NCBI GenBank assembly: GCA_003156975.1
Contig: PMIE01000043.1
Coordinates: 26,618-90,617, forward strand
DNA from: Chloroflexota bacterium
GTDB taxonomy: Bacteria > Chloroflexota > Limnocylindria > Limnocylindrales > CSP1-4
DNA: 64,000 nt
Direction of reading: 5' to 3'
Shown: positions 16,472-21,379 of the stretch, piece after piece
Layout: each line of letters opens with the position of its first letter
Position numbering within the stretch: position 1 is the stretch's first letter
Position numbers and translations under genes: made by a program
Notes under the pieces: model-generated
Database searches by the model: none
Seen by the model: the letters and a program-made list of their open reading frames with translations, nothing else
What the model was told of the DNA's origin: nothing

Positions 16472-17674
16472 ATGAGTCGAACCCCGCGCATCGGCATCCT
16501 CACCGGCGGCGGCGACGTCCCCGGCCTCAACGCCGTTATCAAGAGCGTCGTCTACCGCGCAACAGAGCTTGGCTATGAGGTCTACGGCATCCGGCGTGGG
16601 TGGGAAGGCCTGACCCACATGAAGCCGGGCCCGGGCCTGGACACCGACTACATCATCCCGCTCGATCGGACCAACACCCGCTCCATCGACCGGACCGGCG
16701 GAACCTGGCTGCACACCTCCCGGACCAACGCCCGCAAGATGAAGGCCGGCAAGACGCCGGCGCACATCGGGCCGGATCGGCTCAAGCAGCTGGAAACCTC
16801 GCCCGGCGTCTACAACTTCACGCCGGTCGTTCTCGAGAACATCGAGAAGCTCGGCCTTGACTACCTCGTCCCGATCGGTGGCGACGACACCCTGAGCTTC
16901 AGCCAGGTTCTGGCCGACAAGGGCGTCAAGCTCGTGGCCGTTCCCAAGACGATGGACAACGATGTCCAGGGCACCGAGTACTGCATCGGTTTCTCGACCG
17001 CCATCACGCGGGCAAAGGAAGCGATCAACCGCCAGCGGACTACCCTCGGCTCGCACGAGCGCATCGGGGTCTTCCGCATTTTCGGCCGTGACGCCGGCTT
17101 CACCGCGCTCTACACGGCCTACGTCACCAGCGGCCGCTGCCTGATCCCCGAATACCAGTTCGACCTGGACCATCTGGTCGAGCTGCTCGTCGAGGACAAG
17201 AAGAACAACCCCAGCAAGTACTCCTTCGCCATCGCGGCCGAAGGCGCAATCTGGAAGGGCGGCGAGCTGACCGAATATGGCCCGGCCGACGCCTTCGGCC
17301 ACAAGCACAAGGCCAACATTGCCGAAGTGCTCGCGTCCGAGATCCAGTCTCGCTCAGGCCAGGAGACGCTTGCCAGCGAGCTGACCTACGACCTTCGATC
17401 GGGCGATCCCGACGCGGTCGACTCCATCGTGGGCATCACCTTCGCCAACGTGGCGATGAACCTCATCGCCGACGGAATCAGCGGCCGGATGGTCGCCATT
17501 CGTGGCGGCAAGTACAGCCACTCGCCGCTGCCGAACCCGGATCAGGGACCCCGCTCGATCGACATCCCGGCGATGTACAACACCGATCGCTATCGCCCCA
17601 TCTACACGAACCGCATGGGGTTGCCGCTCTTGCTCGGTATCCCGGTGGACGAGGATCCGTCCCTCATCAAGTAG
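16472..17674 (+). CDS. pfp: pyrophosphate-dependent 6-phosphofructokinase
   Basis: IGILTGGGDVPGLNAVI...PIGGDDTLS, where GGDD in place of GGDG is the PPi-PFK signature. The sequence continues MDNDVQGTEYCIGFSTA. Length is 400 aa. Confidence 0.9.
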   Translation: MSRTPRIGILTGGGDVPGLNAVIKSVVYRATELGYEVYGIRRGWEGLTHMKPGPGLDTDYIIPLDRTNTRSIDRTGGTWLHTSRTNARKMKAGKTPAHIGPDRLKQLETSPGVYNFTPVVLENIEKLGLDYLVPIGGDDTLSFSQVLADKGVKLVAVPKTMDNDVQGTEYCIGFSTAITRAKEAINRQRTTLGSHERIGVFRIFGRDAGFTALYTAYVTSGRCLIPEYQFDLDHLVELLVEDKKNNPSKYSFAIAAEGAIWKGGELTEYGPADAFGHKHKANIAEVLASEIQSRSGQETLASELTYDLRSGDPDAVDSIVGITFANVAMNLIADGISGRMVAIRGGKYSHSPLPNPDQGPRSIDIPAMYNTDRYRPIYTNRMGLPLLLGIPVDEDPSLIK

Positions 17675-17697
17675 CTGATCTCCAGCCGCAGACTCGA

Positions 17698-17726
17698 AGG
17701 CCCCGGCTTTCGCCGGGGCCTTCTAT
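17698..17726 (+). terminator. intrinsic terminator downstream of pfp
   Basis: ggccccggc-tttc-gccggggcc forms a 9-bp GC stem followed by ttctatcatt. Confidence 0.5.
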
Positions 17727-17804
17727 CATTACCAGAACGAAACCAGAACGAGCGTCACGGGACGCACGTTTGACAAGGAAGGGTGGGCAAGGCACGGTTC
17801 ACAA

Positions 17805-19070
17805 GTGACGACTACACCAACTCCGGCGCCCCTGATCAACGGCCGTGACTTGTTACGCGACAATGGCCTGCCCGTCGAGGGGCCGATCCTGTGGGGTCGG
17901 CCGGTTACAGGCAGCGCTCCGGGCGTCTTCATCGTCGAGTTGCCCGCCCCACAACCCAAGGTCTCGATAGACCCGGATGCGATCCGCGAATGGCTGGGCC
18001 TCGCGCCGGGCCTCCGCCTCGATGGCAAGCGCCCCACTGTCGGCGAGTTGCAGACGCGGCTCGCGTCGTTCTGGCTGCCGAGCCAGGCCATCGTCTTCAT
18101 CGGCTCCAGCCAGAAATCGGTAGGGGCTCGCCTTGCCGGCATGTACAAGACCCCTCTCGGTGAGCGACGCCCGCAGCCGACCGGCTACTGGCTGAAGACC
18201 CTCCGCGACATCAACAAAGCCCGCATCTGGTGGGCCCCCGCATCGGACCCGGAGTTGTACGAAGACACCCTGCTCGAGGCCTTCATCAAGGCCGCCGGGG
18301 CTCTGCCGTATGGGGTTCTGGTCAGGCCGGGCGGCCAGGGCCGTGACCACGGTTTGACTGCGCCACTCCACGACGACGAGGCCGTTGCGCGGGCCAAGGT
18401 CAGGAAGGTCACACAGCTGGCGGACGCCAACGAAGAAGAGATGGCTGCGAGCATGTACCGCAGCGGCGCCAGACCACCGGTCCGCGTCAAGAAGACGACG
18501 CCGCGCAAGGTCGCCAAGCTCCCCCCCGCAACAACGGGACCATCCGCCATCGAGACTGTGGTGATCCGCAAGTCGACCAGGACGATCAATACGGGCGGAG
18601 CGCCCATTGCGCCGATCCACCTGACCGCCGACGGCCTGGCCGCCCTCCACTTCGAGCTGGACGAGCTGACCAACCGCCGTCGGCCCGAGGTCATCCAGCG
18701 CATCAAGTCGGCTCGTGAACTCGGCGACCTCAGTGAGAACGCCGACTACGAAGCCGCGCGCAAGGAGCAGTCCTTCCTGGAAGGCCGGGTCCAGCAGCTC
18801 GAGCAGATGATCAAGTACGCGGTCATGATCGAGGCGAGCCACGAAGGTGGCAGCGAGGTTGTCCTCGGCTCCACGGTGGTCATCGAGACGGACCGCCACG
18901 GCGAAGAGACCTTCACGATCGTCGGATCCGCCGAAGCGGATGCCGCGGCCGGCAAGATCAGCTTCACATCGCCGATTGGCCGGGCCCTGCTTGGTCGGCA
19001 TCCGGGCGAGACGATCCGCGTTCAGGTTCCGTCCGGCTCGCTCGACTACAAGGTGGTCCGGGTCAAGTAG
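17805..19070 (+). CDS. greA: transcription elongation factor GreA fused to a ~260-aa uncharacterised N-terminal domain
   Basis: The C-terminal ~160 aa are unmistakably GreA (ELGDLSENADYEAARKEQSFLEGRVQQLEQ; ...GSEVVLGSTVVIETD...GKISFTSPIGRALLGRHPGETIRVQVPSG). There is no in-frame stop between the N-domain, the basic linker (VRVKKTTPRKVAKLPP) and the GreA core. A GTG start is at 17805. Confidence 0.75.
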   Translation: MTTTPTPAPLINGRDLLRDNGLPVEGPILWGRPVTGSAPGVFIVELPAPQPKVSIDPDAIREWLGLAPGLRLDGKRPTVGELQTRLASFWLPSQAIVFIGSSQKSVGARLAGMYKTPLGERRPQPTGYWLKTLRDINKARIWWAPASDPELYEDTLLEAFIKAAGALPYGVLVRPGGQGRDHGLTAPLHDDEAVARAKVRKVTQLADANEEEMAASMYRSGARPPVRVKKTTPRKVAKLPPATTGPSAIETVVIRKSTRTINTGGAPIAPIHLTADGLAALHFELDELTNRRRPEVIQRIKSARELGDLSENADYEAARKEQSFLEGRVQQLEQMIKYAVMIEASHEGGSEVVLGSTVVIETDRHGEETFTIVGSAEADAAAGKISFTSPIGRALLGRHPGETIRVQVPSGSLDYKVVRVK

Positions 19071-19186: not shown

Positions 19187-19831
19187 TCAGCTACTGGGTG
19201 GAGTGGGCGGCGTGGGCGGCGTGGTCTGAGTCCAGGCATCGGCTGCGGCTCGATTTGAGCGCGCCCGTCCGGGCAGGAGATTCCACAGCACGATCACGAC
19301 GCCCAGGCCAACCGCCATGAGTGGCAGCCCATTGTGGAGCACCGTGTTCGAGTCGCCGCCGTCGATGTTCAGAACGTTCTCGAAGAACAACCCGAAACCG
19401 ATGAACAGCCCAAGCCCGGCCGCGGCAGCCTGAAGTCCCGATTCCAAAATGTCCCTGCGGCGGTGCAGCAAGCCCCAAAGGATCAGGGTCACCCCGACCG
19501 ATCCAGGCGCGACAAGCGCCCACAGGTATGCCCAGCTGGCGTACGCACCGGTGGCATTTTGGAAGGCGAGCACCAGCCCGACCGTCGTGAGGGTACCTCC
19601 GGGGATCGCCGCCCCGAGTCCGCCCTCGTAGGAAATGGCCAGACCCATGAGGAGCAGCAAGACTCCGGGCGCAATGACGAACATGGGCCAACCGTATCGC
19701 CCCATGTCGAAGCCGAACTGCTCGGTCGCCAGGAAGTAGATGCCTAGCAGTACCAGAAACAGGCCGACGACCAGAGTCCCGCGGTTCCTGTCACCGCTGT
19801 TGCTCCGGGGCTCCTGCCATCCGTAACTCAT
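19187..19831 (-). CDS. hypothetical polytopic membrane protein
   Basis: GGAGG lies 8 nt upstream of the ATG. Five to six hydrophobic helices are present, plus a C-terminal TPPTPPTPP tail. Confidence 0.65.
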   Translation of the reverse strand: MSYGWQEPRSNSGDRNRGTLVVGLFLVLLGIYFLATEQFGFDMGRYGWPMFVIAPGVLLLLMGLAISYEGGLGAAIPGGTLTTVGLVLAFQNATGAYASWAYLWALVAPGSVGVTLILWGLLHRRRDILESGLQAAAAGLGLFIGFGLFFENVLNIDGGDSNTVLHNGLPLMAVGLGVVIVLWNLLPGRARSNRAAADAWTQTTPPTPPTPPSS

Positions 19832-19933: not shown

Positions 19934-20998
19934 CTAGGAGGAGGCGACGAAGACCGGGACGTCGCCAATCATCAGGACCTTGTCCGGTCCCAGGTCCGCA
20001 TGGCTCCCGGCAACGACCAGCGACACGCTTACGCCGCCGGTCGCGTACACCATGGGCGTCCCGACACCGACCCTTCCATCGTGGTGAATGTCGCGGGCGA
20101 TCGGCGCTCCCTTCAGGCTCGCCGTCCCGTTGCCGTAGACGAGCAGCTCATTCATGGCGCGGTCGGGATCGATGGAGTCGGATGGCAGGCCGAGCCGAAC
20201 GGGATCGATCACCTGCCAGGTTGTGGGGCCCAACCCTTCGACGAGGATGTGGTAGCCGCCGTTGGCGGGGATCGCCTCGACGATCGGCAGCGAGCCCCCG
20301 AATCCGACATAGACGCGGGGTGAGCCGGTCCAGCCGGCCAGGCCAAACTGATCGAATGAGACCTGGACCATGGCGGCCGGCGAGGATCGAATGTCGATCG
20401 GCAGCGCCACGATCCAGCGGTCGCCGGGCGCCTTGATCGATGCCAGCTCGTCGGATATCAGCTTCGAGACAACGCGGCCCACCAGAACTACCCCGCCGGT
20501 CTCGGCGCTCGAGCCGTCGACCTGACCGGTGGCGACGAGCGGCATGAACTCCCCCGCGTATGCGCCCGTCGCAAGGCCATACGCGTTCGACGAGAGAGCG
20601 TAGTAGTTGGCCTTGCCGCCCTTGACCTCGATGCGCAGCCCGTTCATGGGCGGAACCGGAACAACGGAGCCGTCGGCGGCGGCGTAGATGAGTTCGGCGC
20701 CCCGCTGGACAAATCCGACTGGGTGCGCGGAAGGGCTGCTGACGACGGTCGGAGAGGCCGAGACAACGGGCGTGGGAGTGCCCGGCGTGCCGCCGCCCGA
20801 GGACACGGACGGAGAGGCGGTTTGACCCGCGCCTGTCCCAGGGGAGGTGGGCCGGGGCATCGACATTCCGGCTCTACCGGTCGCGGTCCGCGCGCCGCCC
20901 GCAAAGCCCGCGCCGAAGACCATAGCGGCAATTCCGACGCCCATGAGGACGAACGCCGCTCCGGTCAGACCTGCGACGACGCGCCGGGTGGGTTTCAT
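19934..20998 (-). CDS. hypothetical secreted/membrane-anchored protein with a Ser/Pro/Thr-rich linker
   Basis: The start is placed at MKPTRRVVAGLTGAAFVLMGVGIAAMVF (signal/anchor). A low-complexity S/P/T/G linker follows, then a ~250-aa beta-rich domain. Confidence 0.55.
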   Translation of the reverse strand: MKPTRRVVAGLTGAAFVLMGVGIAAMVFGAGFAGGARTATGRAGMSMPRPTSPGTGAGQTASPSVSSGGGTPGTPTPVVSASPTVVSSPSAHPVGFVQRGAELIYAAADGSVVPVPPMNGLRIEVKGGKANYYALSSNAYGLATGAYAGEFMPLVATGQVDGSSAETGGVVLVGRVVSKLISDELASIKAPGDRWIVALPIDIRSSPAAMVQVSFDQFGLAGWTGSPRVYVGFGGSLPIVEAIPANGGYHILVEGLGPTTWQVIDPVRLGLPSDSIDPDRAMNELLVYGNGTASLKGAPIARDIHHDGRVGVGTPMVYATGGVSVSLVVAGSHADLGPDKVLMIGDVPVFVASS

Positions 20999-21379
20999 CG
21001 ATGCGCAACCCCGCCTGCGGAGACTGCCTGCCAGTCTAGCGGCGCGGGCGCAGGTTACGTCGGTCGATGAGGCAACAGTGCAACGCCACGAGCGCGTTCG
21101 GCTGCGGTTGCCCGTGCGCAGGCGAGCGGCCAGCGATTTGGCGGCTCGTCCCATCCATTGATCGCACCTAGACGCTCACGTCCGAATTGCCTTTCAACGT
21201 GGCACCATTCGGGTGTGAGCAACCCCACCAATCCAGCCTTGCCGTCTGCGCCCGTGCCAGCCGCCTCCGATACCTCGCCCCAAGCCACCGCGCGAAGGGA
21301 GGCGACCCGCACCGCCCCCGCCAAGTCGGCCGCAGACCGCCCAACCGGCCATCGCGGCCGCCCCACCGGCGAACCGTCG

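Follow-up and report, generated by a model that had tools for sequence, protein, structure and literature searches.

A GreA fusion protein of Limnocylindria with a conserved N-terminal domain that probably derives from a GIY-YIG-type endonuclease

In a clade of the Chloroflexota class Limnocylindria, GreA is encoded as the C-terminal part of a longer protein, and we think it fairly likely that this lineage's GreA carries a permanently attached, exapted and probably non-catalytic module of GIY-YIG origin, tethered by a basic linker. Few bacterial transcription factors are as well understood as GreA, which is nearly always a minimal protein of ~158 aa with only two domains, a coiled coil and a C-terminal FKBP-like domain, the latter being the part that binds the rim of the RNA polymerase (RNAP) secondary channel. 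The fusion gene was analyzed within a 64-kb stretch of DNA (hereafter the window). In its ORF (17805-19070) GreA occupies residues ~269-421 and a folded domain occupies residues ~10-195, with a variable basic linker between them. The parts of the gene are as follows.

17805..19070, + strand: coding sequence of the fusion protein, with a GTG start, 421 aa, stop included and no internal stop (ORF list and full-length in-frame homologs)
17832..18374, + strand: N-terminal folded domain (N-domain, residues ~10-190), a GIY-YIG-like core with elaborations (AlphaFold2 models, family search, hallmark analysis, dN/dS 0.18)
17943..18083, + strand: conserved two-helix insert of ~47-50 residues (residues 47-93; W63, D73, G74, P77, R85, W90) (model secondary structure, whole-family conservation, dN/dS 0.14)
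18390..18608, + strand: linker of variable sequence (residues ~196-268), probably disordered, with many T, A, R, P and K residues (column identity, dN/dS, composition)
18618..18824, + strand: GreA N-terminal coiled-coil domain (residues 272-340) with the acidic tip GDLSENADY (Pfam PF03449; alignment to PDB 1GRJ, E 5e-30)
18852..19067, + strand: GreA C-terminal FKBP-like globular domain (residues 350-421) (Pfam PF01272; NCBIfam GreA equivalog)

A first-pass annotation of this DNA had proposed a 421-aa ORF uninterrupted by a stop, with GreA in its C-terminal part, and both proposals were borne out. The GreA_GreB_N model (PF03449) matched residues 272-340 with 88.9 bits (cutoff 24.5), covering model positions 2-70 of 71, and the GreA_GreB C-terminal model (PF01272) matched residues 350-421 with 82.7 bits (cutoff 26.9). 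Two NCBIfam GreA equivalogs also scored above their cutoffs (NF001263, 177.3 against 145; TIGR01462, 163.1 against 139), and the protein fell below the cutoffs of the NCBIfam GreB and Rnk models. The acidic tip aligned to GDLKENAEY of 1GRJ, such that D308 and E311 (18726-18737), which are nearly invariant among homologs, correspond to D41 and E44 of Escherichia coli GreA. Judged by these alignments, the GreA part is canonical and complete with its catalytic acidic tip. Residues 269-421 thus contain the same coiled coil with acidic tip and the same FKBP-like domain as the E. coli protein, whereas the conserved N-terminal domain of ~190 aa and the linker of ~70 aa are additional.

We considered if the long ORF is an artefact of annotation or assembly, either two merged genes or a GreA made from an internal start behind a non-functional upstream read-through. 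There are in-frame GTG codons at residues 252 and 253, and the homologous loci L012, L020, L021, L041 and L042 are split by frameshifts, both of which would fit such an artefact. No more than 9 of 26 species keep the two GTG codons, however, and the junction has no conserved start codon: no single position there holds a start in more than 9 of the 26. The split loci are mostly from long-read MAGs in which adjacent genes are frameshifted too, whereas ~36 of the 42 species-level Limnocylindria/Chloroflexota genomes with a fusion locus, all independent assemblies, give a single in-frame alignment. L041 was also evaluated as a divergent homolog (49% identity) and rejected, as frameshifts in a long-read MAG produce the low identity. 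In-frame GreA fusions recur in ~190 protein clusters (90% identity), and the best matches to residues 1-260 were all 400-445 aa long with both GreA Pfam domains present. The N-domain is under strong purifying selection, with dN/dS of 0.18 compared with 0.45 for the linker and 0.16 for GreA, and mean column identity is 0.57 in the linker as opposed to 0.81-0.86 in the domains on either side. The first-pass annotation had raised the prospect of an internal start and of homologs that lack the N-domain and have a stop or frameshift at the junction, and neither applies. Because homologs hold the N-domain in frame and the junction is without a conserved start codon, we conclude from sequence comparison that the fusion gene is real and is neither an assembly nor a start-codon artefact. 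The artefact reading is effectively refuted by these comparative data, and we give it almost no credence.

A tblastn search found no second Gre-family gene in the 64-kb window, and no second greA was present outside the fusion itself in the 42 homologous loci of 12 kb each. The fusion gene is vertically conserved across the Limnocylindria clade, the hosts of which belong to an abundant lineage of soil, peat and freshwater Chloroflexota, and the locus has a housekeeping appearance, with a promoter-like element of its own after pfk and no defence genes close by. Three features were identified upstream of the start codon.

17696..17723, + strand: G+C-rich hairpin GAAGGCCCCGG-CTTTCG-CCGGGGCCTTC, past the stop of a phosphofructokinase-like gene (16472-17674) (read from the sequence)
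17770..17775, + strand: perfect TTGACA hexamer, a candidate -35 element for a dedicated fusion-gene promoter (invariant across species in a 27-species alignment)
17792..17802, + strand: invariant 11-mer GCACGGTTCAC, which ends 2 nt before the GTG start (27-species alignment; single occurrence in the window)

Most of the 27 aligned species share the hairpin, which probably ends the upstream transcription unit and was missed by a terminator scan because the stem is not followed by a T-run. A consensus promoter scan upstream of the fusion gene returned no canonical sigma-70 -35/-10 pair, so it is the conservation of TTGACA that suggests a promoter role. The 11-mer contains cAcggT (17793-17798), which is placed 17 nt after TTGACA and is therefore a possible non-canonical -10; the 11-mer could act in this way to give a leaderless mRNA from ~17805, or it could be an operator. 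No Shine-Dalgarno sequence occurs at a proper distance from the GTG at 17805. That a conserved promoter-like element directly precedes the start of the long ORF further argues against an artefactual upstream extension.

The linker had been described as rich in lysine and arginine, and we found it to be rich in K, R, P and T, with the quoted strings PVTGSAPGVFIVELP, AIVFIGSSQKSVGARLAGMY and VRVKKTTPRKVAKLPP all present in the protein. The last of these is a basic patch within the linker (residues 226-241, nt 18480-18527). A semi-conserved GPSAIE.PVVRR motif lies immediately N-terminal to GreA, and in the first AlphaFold2 model pLDDT was below 50 at residues 177-203.

The N-terminal domain had been called folded (~200 aa) in the same annotation, and this is corroborated by an AlphaFold2 model with a mean pLDDT of 95.9 and a pTM of 0.90. 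Residues 1-260 or 1-200 had no match in Pfam, NCBIfam, PADLOC, PHROGs or PDB sequences, and profile searches of PDB sequences with three alignments were likewise empty. Family searches recovered 931 clusters (50% identity) at E ≤ 1e-3, 659 of them at E ≤ 1e-10, and no Pfam, NCBIfam or PADLOC model covers the 931-cluster family. Its members occur in three architectures: fused to GreA, as standalone proteins of ~200 aa, or with another C-terminal module (module X). Members with intact hallmarks are found between TerL and portal genes, adjoining an integrase, beside Zorya-like genes and downstream of Avs2. In a synteny comparison meant to tell orthologs from paralogs, both the GreA fusions of shorter length and the proteins with module X had contexts unlike that of the window. 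We conclude that the N-domain is a folded and selected member of a large family.

This family probably derives from a GIY-YIG-type endonuclease. The family consensus GVY...YIG...R...Y...E...PFAN follows the canonical GIY-YIG order, and more than 170 intact members carry six ordered hallmarks on the expected secondary-structure elements. Members of the family show Tyr (GIY), Tyr (YIG), Arg, Tyr/His, Glu and Asn in the same order as do R.Eco29kI (PDB 3MX4 and 3NIC), the UvrC N-terminal domain and I-TevI, on what may be a strand-strand-helix-strand-helix core, and the modeled order of strand, insert, strand, helix, helix, strand and helix is consistent with that core. Foldseek returned R.Eco29kI as the top PDB match for both of two independent models, at sub-threshold scores (E 0.065-0.08, TM ~0.3), and the sub-threshold matches to viral proteins include GIY-YIG and homing endonucleases. 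Full-length family members matched PF20815 or PF01541 in 3 of 150 cases (E 0.003-0.006). When the two-helix insert was deleted from intact members, 5 of 10 matched these two models in register (best E 7e-4), as compared with a weak GIY-YIG match of 13.1 bits in 1 of 10 degenerate sequences from the window's clade, in constructs that were designed with the GIY-YIG hypothesis in mind. The segment from YIG to Arg gave weak matches to a PHROG endonuclease and to the UvrC N-terminus.

The first-pass annotation had considered a GIY-YIG assignment and dismissed it on motif spacing, a dismissal that was probably wrong. The distance from GIY to YIG is ~55 residues in the N-domain family, with 55 residues separating positions 42 and 98 of the window's protein, as opposed to 10-11 in I-TevI and UvrC, and the models attribute this unusual spacing to the conserved two-helix insert, which separates the 'GIY' strand (40-45) from the 'YIG' strand (96-102) while the six hallmarks keep their canonical order across the family. 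R.Eco29kI, a proven GIY-YIG enzyme and the top structural match, itself has a gap of 27 residues (PMC1952068), and like the N-domain family it carries additional residues between the two motifs along with an N-terminal extension. The architecture also resembles I-TevI, in that a flexible linker connects an N-terminal nuclease domain with a targeting module at the C-terminus, and free-standing family members occur in phage genomes. Unlike I-TevI, the C-terminal partner of the fused N-domain is an RNAP-binding factor and not a DNA-binding domain.

The N-domain might instead have a distinct fold in which the motifs are coincidental, with a protein-protein or regulatory role such as docking on a lineage-specific RNAP surface or autoinhibition of GreA. 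Every fold and sequence match to GIY-YIG proteins is sub-threshold, including those of intact relatives, which whether full-length or insert-deleted reached at most 20.2 bits against curated Pfam GIY-YIG cutoffs of 22.4-22.6, and in this the family differs from established GIY-YIG enzymes. Only ~80 of the ~190 residues would correspond to a GIY-YIG core, and the invariant tryptophans W30, W63, W90, W129, W142 and W143 have no GIY-YIG counterpart. A coincidence of motifs, however, would have to place six hallmarks in order on the expected elements in more than 170 intact members and to make GIY-YIG models, in the correct register, the recurring weak matches among 24,736 Pfam models. It would also have to account for one GIY-YIG enzyme heading the PDB matches of both models and for genomic contexts typical of free-standing endonucleases. 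We therefore consider a distinct fold unlikely.

The window's copy has lost part of the signature that its intact relatives retain. Its hallmark positions are F42 (17928-30), F98 (18096-98), R109 (18129-31), Y114, Q124, E153 (18261-63) and V171 (18315-17). At the GIY tyrosine (Y6 of I-TevI, Y49 of R.Eco29kI) the clade has Phe in 97% of sequences, as opposed to Tyr in 71-75% of standalone and other non-GreA members. At the YIG tyrosine (Y17 of I-TevI, Y76 of R.Eco29kI) the clade is 59% Tyr and 41% Phe, and unfused members are 86-89% Tyr. The asparagine position (N90 of I-TevI, N154 of R.Eco29kI), which in GIY-YIG enzymes follows the glutamate by 12-15 residues or more, is Val in 86% of the clade and Asn, as part of the family motif PFANL, in 76-91% of unfused members, and the family-conserved His124 is Gln in 92% of the clade as it is in the window. 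The first-pass annotation had overlooked that the window's copy is without both tyrosines, the asparagine and the family-conserved histidine; the missing tyrosines and asparagine also set this copy apart from GIY-YIG enzymes.

Other parts of the pocket are retained. The arginine of the first helix (R27 of I-TevI, R104 of R.Eco29kI) is present as R109, 11 residues past the YIG position, and is 98-100% conserved in Limnocylindria fusions and in the unfused classes, with Arg in 90% and Lys in 10% of 20 distant fusions. The metal-binding glutamate of GIY-YIG enzymes (E75 of I-TevI, E142 of R.Eco29kI) is present as E153 on the helix at 149-164, in 100% of the clade and in 88-97% of unfused members, and its position suggests that it may bind metal. 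Within the window's clade, conservation is 99-100% for R109, E153 and H182 and 84% for Y114.

The intact signature YYRYHEN was found in 1 of 146 GreA-fused sequences compared with 172 of 267 unfused ones, a comparison that is not phylogenetically independent, since 113 of the fused copies come from one close clade. Within the same Chloroflexota subfamily, YYRYHEN was intact in none of 13 GreA-fused proteins and in 15 of the 18 that carry the other C-terminal module. Which hallmark residues are lost varies among divergent fusions, and E153 is gone in ~30% of them; such differing decay is what one would expect if selection on catalysis were relaxed. As far as these alignments indicate, the erosion of hallmarks is specific to the GreA-fused copies.

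Is the N-domain still an active nuclease, with GreA targeting it to cut DNA or RNA at stalled or backtracked polymerases? Such an enzyme might carry out a kind of transcription-coupled processing by incising DNA where complexes are blocked, or it might cut extruded RNA or attack hijacked RNAP during infection. The near-invariance of R109, E153 and H182 leaves room for a modified catalytic activity, and purifying selection on the domain is strong. In addition, the intact relatives resemble real nucleases in phage and defence contexts, and there is a precedent in GreA/B-C domains fused to nuclease effectors that are predicted to act on RNAP (PMC8195603). In R.Eco29kI, however, the Y49A, H108F and E142A variants are catalytically dead while DNA binding is retained (PMC1952068), and the title of PDB 3NIC calls Y49F an 'inactive variant'; the equivalent essential tyrosine is the one that is Phe in nearly all of the clade. 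The replacements at the YIG, Asn and His124 positions, the varied losses among divergent fusions and the vertical conservation of a housekeeping-looking locus also speak against a working nuclease. Since both tyrosines, the asparagine and the family-conserved histidine are lost, the N-domain of the window is probably not an active nuclease, and we hold the cutting variants to be quite doubtful.

The exapted and probably non-catalytic module could have arisen as follows. The ancestral family would have consisted of free-standing GIY-YIG-like endonucleases in phages, integrative elements and defence islands, or of nuclease domains placed N-terminal to another, tethered module. In an ancestor within the Chloroflexota (class Limnocylindria), one such domain may have become attached to the GreA N-terminus by a linker that is long, flexible and basic, and this would give an I-TevI-like plan of N-terminal nuclease, tether and C-terminal targeting part, with GreA as the targeting part. 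Relaxed selection on catalysis after the fusion would then have allowed Tyr42 to become Phe, Tyr98 Phe, His124 Gln and Asn171 Val in the window's copy, and different residues to be lost in other fused lineages, while purifying selection continued to act on the fold and a partial pocket (R109, E153, H182) no less strongly than on GreA. The GreA part presumably occupies the RNAP secondary channel in the usual way. The N-domain would sit outside the channel on a basic leash of ~70 residues, and its role would involve no cutting. The most plausible such role is binding to an RNAP surface or to nucleic acid, whether DNA (upstream or downstream) or extruded RNA, and such binding would raise GreA occupancy or steer GreA to particular stalled complexes. 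The suggestion in the first-pass annotation that the N-domain serves as a tether to DNA or RNAP is a reasonable, if speculative, idea.

We compared the fusion protein with other systems in which a Gre-type domain is joined to a further module. GreA/B-C conflict systems combine a variable effector with TPR, GreA/B-C and PIN domains (Kaur, Iyer, Burroughs and Aravind, eLife 2021; PMC8195603). As in those systems, which are predicted to act on RNAP, a Gre-type domain that binds the secondary channel and an N-terminal effector, there sometimes a DNase, are found in one polypeptide (PMC8195603). The conflict proteins contain only the C-terminal domain of GreA/B together with TPR and PIN domains, and are fast-evolving and sporadic (PMC8195603), whereas the fusion protein has a full, slow-evolving GreA with its catalytic coiled coil, a degenerate effector and a vertical distribution. 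Pfam detected no TPR or PIN domain in the fusion protein, only the GreA domains. The long GreA proteins of Chlamydiae (NF004969, ~718 aa) and spirochaetes (NF011309, ~906 aa) likewise have a C-terminal GreA behind an N-terminal part to which the model descriptions assign no function, and NF004969 is titled 'transcript cleavage factor/unknown domain fusion protein'. The fusion protein scored 45.6 bits against the 697 of NF004969 and 92.4 against the 714 of NF011309, in each case through its GreA part only, and as far as model coverage shows, the N-terminal domains of those proteins are unrelated to that of the window. HelD has its Gre-like domain at the N-terminus, with a helicase-like ATPase as partner, and is not known to have any sequence relationship to the N-domain. 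This mycobacterial and Bacillus RNAP-recycling factor is reported to use a Gre-like secondary-channel domain to attach another enzymatic module to RNAP (10.1101/2020.07.20.211821), and in this joining of a Gre-like channel domain to another module HelD is similar to the fusion protein. A whole-word literature search for GreA with GIY-YIG found no paper.

A functional sensor or effector at stalled RNAP, in which GreA occupies the secondary channel and the GIY-YIG-derived pocket of R109, E153 and H182 meanwhile engages DNA or the extruded 3′ RNA of backtracked complexes, seems to us improbable. If true, it would couple transcript-cleavage rescue to a step that recognizes, or even incises, templates that are damaged or obstructed. 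No counterpart has been described for such a link, within one polypeptide, between Gre-mediated restart and the processing of nucleic acid. A mobile homing-type endonuclease would then also have been domesticated as part of a core transcription factor throughout a whole bacterial class. For the family as a whole, the occurrence of members in phage packaging modules and beside Avs2 or Zorya-like genes makes it a candidate new family of homing or defence endonucleases. The difference between free-standing copies that are intact and GreA-fused copies that are eroded would, as read from their sequences, make a clean natural case of a mobile nuclease domain taking on a non-catalytic role by exaptation. 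In Limnocylindria, GreA has been kept joined to a second domain that is under equally strong selection, which implies an extra layer of control or targeting for the rescue of backtracked RNAP.

The reading frame at 17805-19070 (plus strand), described in the first-pass annotation as an uninterrupted 421-aa ORF, matches that description exactly. The gene and its flanks carry the following features:

16472 onward, region to 17723, upstream of the fusion: pfk-like gene of 400 aa, with PfkA-type motifs by eye
17696-17723: conserved G+C-rich hairpin without a T-run, after the pfk end
17770-17775, upstream of the fusion: TTGACA
between TTGACA and GCACGGTTCAC: variable spacer of ~16 nt
17792-17802: GCACGGTTCAC, an 11-mer ending 2 nt before the GTG
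17805-19070, plus strand: fusion CDS with GTG start, 421 aa, no internal stop (ORF listing)
19187-19831, minus strand, downstream of the fusion: gene for a 214-aa multi-pass membrane protein
19934-21154, minus strand, downstream of the fusion: gene for a 406-aa protein with an N-terminal hydrophobic segment

The fusion protein qualifies as a genuine GreA by every sequence criterion. In Pfam, both the GreA/GreB N-terminal coiled coil (residues 272-340) and the C-terminal domain (residues 350-421) score far above the gathering score, the protein exceeds the curated cutoffs of the NCBIfam GreA equivalogs NF001263 and TIGR01462, and E. coli GreA (1GRJ, E 5e-30) is the nearest protein with a solved structure. 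The acidic tip is kept as GDLSENADY, with D308 and E311 corresponding to D41 and E44 of E. coli GreA in the alignment to 1GRJ. No second Gre-family gene was found within the 64-kb window. An antisense ORF of 382 aa (17853-19001, minus strand) mirrors nearly all of the fusion gene; we regard it as the usual high-G+C shadow ORF (window G+C, 66.6%) and not as a gene candidate.

Residues 1-260, used as a query by themselves, match 190 clusters at 90% identity. Almost all of these proteins are 400-445 aa long and have both GreA Pfam domains; identities reach down to ~59%, and Candidatus Limnocylindrales is the source wherever one is named. Scanning one genome per species yielded 42 loci, all from Chloroflexota/Limnocylindria MAGs of fens, peat and soils, and in ~36 of these the N-domain, linker and GreA form a single in-frame alignment. 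The non-conforming loci are frameshifted and belong mostly to long-read assemblies in which the adjacent pfk is frameshifted too; these copies look like assembly error, not biology, and their frameshifts are the origin of falsely "short" or "no-Pfam" homologues, P0063 among them. The broken loci include L012, L020, L041 and L042 (MFD long-read MAGs) and L021, with pfk also disrupted in L041. Conservation along the protein tracks the domain boundaries: mean column identity is 0.81 over residues 31-200, falls to 0.57 in the linker (201-270) and rises to 0.86 in GreA. In pairwise comparisons of 26 species, the N-domain has a median dN/dS of 0.18 (0.14 in its two-helix insert, residues 47-93), the linker 0.45 and GreA 0.16. 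Around the junction these species have no conserved in-frame ATG, GTG or TTG, at most 9 of the 26 having one at any one position. The annotation had named an internal start, or homologues that lack the N-domain and have a stop or frameshift at the junction, as ways in which the fusion could prove spurious; on both counts the evidence speaks for the long protein, and the fusion of GreA to an N-terminal domain is real. A shorter GreA fusion of 368 aa (P0413, L049:6001-7107), with an N-domain 45-50% identical, lies on a 3.1-Mb contig in a neighbourhood unlike that of the window, beside a beta-lactamase-family gene and response regulators; this copy may be orthologous to the window's gene, in a distant lineage of Limnocylindria, or paralogous to it.

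The upstream gene of the window looks like a phosphofructokinase from its motifs, and the pfk-greA order is kept in close Limnocylindria loci. Both TTGACA and GCACGGTTCAC are invariant in 27 species although the proteins of those species are only 60-85% identical, and the 11-mer occurs once in the window. No Shine-Dalgarno sequence was found at a proper distance from the GTG. The arrangement suggests a dedicated promoter and a leaderless mRNA possibly starting at the GTG, and it could alternatively be an operator; we keep the promoter reading tentative because GCACGGTTCAC departs from the canonical -10 and a consensus promoter scan called no promoter. On the downstream side, a membrane-protein homologue likewise follows the fusion in L041, so this adjacency seems conserved.

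Residues 1-260 had no match in Pfam, NCBIfam or PDB sequences. AlphaFold2 gave a moderate N-domain model from an alignment of the window's own Limnocylindria clade (pLDDT 76.8) and a very confident one from a diverse family alignment (pLDDT 95.9, pTM 0.90), with the element order H13-19, E25-29, E40-45, H57-66, H79-87, E96-102, H106-115, H128-132, E140-145, H149-164, H191-199. Searching 1.84 billion representatives exhaustively with a profile gave a family of 931 clusters at 50% identity with E<=1e-3 (659 with E<=1e-10), for which Pfam, NCBIfam, PADLOC and PHROGs hold no model. The family has three recurrent architectures. Some members are fused to GreA and measure 345-480 aa. Others stand alone at ~200 aa; they make up at least 725 clusters at 90% identity, are all called "hypothetical", lack a Pfam match and include MAG names from Deltaproteobacteria and Rhodospirillaceae. 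In the third group, of ~300-370 aa, the N-domain and an Ala/Pro-rich linker precede other C-terminal modules. One such module in Chloroflexota is a conserved segment of ~80 residues (...LNDAVQTIACRRL...WTIRC) with no Pfam match. Specific to Chloroflexota is the combination of an intact nuclease-like N-domain, an Ala/Pro-rich linker and this module (...LNDAVQTIACRRLVRELTV...WTIRC) in GreA's place, carried by P0320 (L050:6001-7047), P0313, P0315, P0316, P0319, P0332, P0339 and P0353. I-TevI consists of an N-terminal nuclease domain, a flexible tether and a C-terminal module, and the family follows the same plan with an interchangeable C-terminal module; in the fusions, GreA would occupy the targeting position.

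The consensus sequence of the family is PGVYVVEL ... (conserved two-helix segment) ... LYIG...S...R...YY.T.LG..RPHAGGHWLKTL ... E..LL..F ... PFANL ... HG. Numbered as in the window, strands 40-45 and 96-102 carry Tyr42 and Tyr98, the helix that follows has Arg109 and Tyr114, helix 149-164 bears Glu153, and Asn171 completes the series. The GIY-YIG hallmarks are Y6, Y17, R27, H31, E75 and N90 in I-TevI, equivalent to Y49, Y76, R104, H108, E142 and N154 in R.Eco29kI (PMC1952068). As judged from the alignment and the predicted fold, the consensus is an ordered GIY-YIG hallmark set on the expected strand-strand-helix-strand-helix core. The first-pass annotation had rejected GIY-YIG on spacing. The GIY-to-YIG distance is indeed 55 residues, filled by a conserved subdomain (W63, D73, G74, P77, R85, W90), and the corresponding 27 residues in R.Eco29kI (PMC1952068) indicate that this spacing is not fixed. 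Independent pointers agree, every one of them sub-threshold: R.Eco29kI is the best Foldseek PDB match of both models (E 0.065 and 0.081, TM ~0.3); BFVD matches include GIY-YIG and homing endonucleases; PF20815 or PF01541 is matched by 3 of 150 family members (E 0.003-0.006) and, once the insert is removed, in register by 5 of 10 intact members (best E 7e-4, 20.2 bits against a cutoff of ~22.5); and the YIG..R segment of standalone members weakly matches a PHROG endonuclease family and the UvrC N-terminus. The window's own copy fails several defining GIY-YIG features. We consider descent from GIY-YIG likely, if not proven; of the earlier interpretation the fusion thus stands, and the rejection gives way to a probable GIY-YIG ancestry in which the insert accounts for the gap and catalytic residues have been lost.

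Intact relatives of the N-domain occur in settings typical of free-standing homing endonucleases and of defence effectors, and this supports the view that the family was ancestrally a nuclease. Intact standalone members of ~202 aa lie between TerL and portal genes, a typical site of free-standing homing endonuclease genes, on two independent phage-like contigs (L051:5001-5609 and L053:5001-5609), and another adjoins a phage integrase (L052). Immediately after a 323-aa member in L054 come a MotA/ExbB-type gene with a faint likeness to ZorA, an OmpA-type gene and a large AAA_11/AAA_12 helicase, so that this neighbourhood (L054:5001-9979) resembles a Zorya-like defence locus with a ZorA/ZorB-like pair and helicase; in L048, a ResIII/DEAD helicase follows a member of 313 aa. 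The intact standalone member P0250 (L043:5001-5612; also L044-L047) lies ~560 nt downstream of an Avs2 STAND NTPase (L043:739-4437; PADLOC, 1229 bits) that matches its model only from position ~310, indicating that the usual N-terminal effector domain is absent; this may be a split Avs2 with its nuclease effector supplied in trans.

At the seven hallmark positions scored (42, 98, 109, 114, 124, 153 and 171), the intact signature YYRYHEN prevails among unfused members. The window copy reads FFRYQEV and its clade F[F/Y]R[Y/F]QEV (F42 97%, V171 86%, Q124 92%; position 98 Y 59%, F 41%). Divergent GreA fusions have each decayed differently (FYRQNAN, FYKGSEN, YFRRYEV, FFRAFAN, VYRPLAT), which argues for repeated loss. 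Within the same Chloroflexota subfamily, the signature is intact in 15 of 18 members with the alternative C-terminal module versus 0 of 13 full GreA fusions; over the whole collection it is intact in 1 of 146 fused versus 172 of 267 unfused proteins, a difference inflated by shared ancestry, as 113 fused proteins form one clade. In R.Eco29kI, Y49A, H108F and E142A abolish cleavage and largely keep DNA binding (PMC1952068), and the PDB entry of a Y49F crystal form bears the title "inactive variant". The fused N-domain is therefore most likely no longer a conventional GIY-YIG nuclease, yet it is strongly selected. R109, E153 and H182 are 99-100% conserved within the window's clade and could still serve to bind a ligand or support an altered activity, and the main rival explanation is that the N-domain may still be an active, RNAP-targeted nuclease. 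We prefer a non-catalytic role because the catalytic residues are eroded.

Because GreA has its N-terminus outside the RNAP secondary channel and the linker is a basic, probably disordered leash of ~70 residues, DNA, extruded RNA or RNAP surfaces close to the mouth of the channel could be within reach of the N-domain. The GreA C-terminal domain binds the rim of the channel and the coiled coil reaches the active site (PMC8195603, PMC3132773). In the preferred non-catalytic reading, the N-domain would anchor the protein to nucleic acid or RNAP and thereby modulate where or how long GreA acts. The fusion protein belongs neither to the long-GreA equivalogs of chlamydiae or spirochaetes (NCBIfam) nor to the conflict systems (GreA/B-C + TPR + PIN) described by Kaur et al. 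2021, which are a precedent for a Gre-type RNAP-binding domain joined to nuclease effectors (PMC8195603), and our literature search found no paper naming GreA together with GIY-YIG. We suggest that it is a GreA with a lineage-wide N-terminal module, probably derived from a nuclease and exapted.
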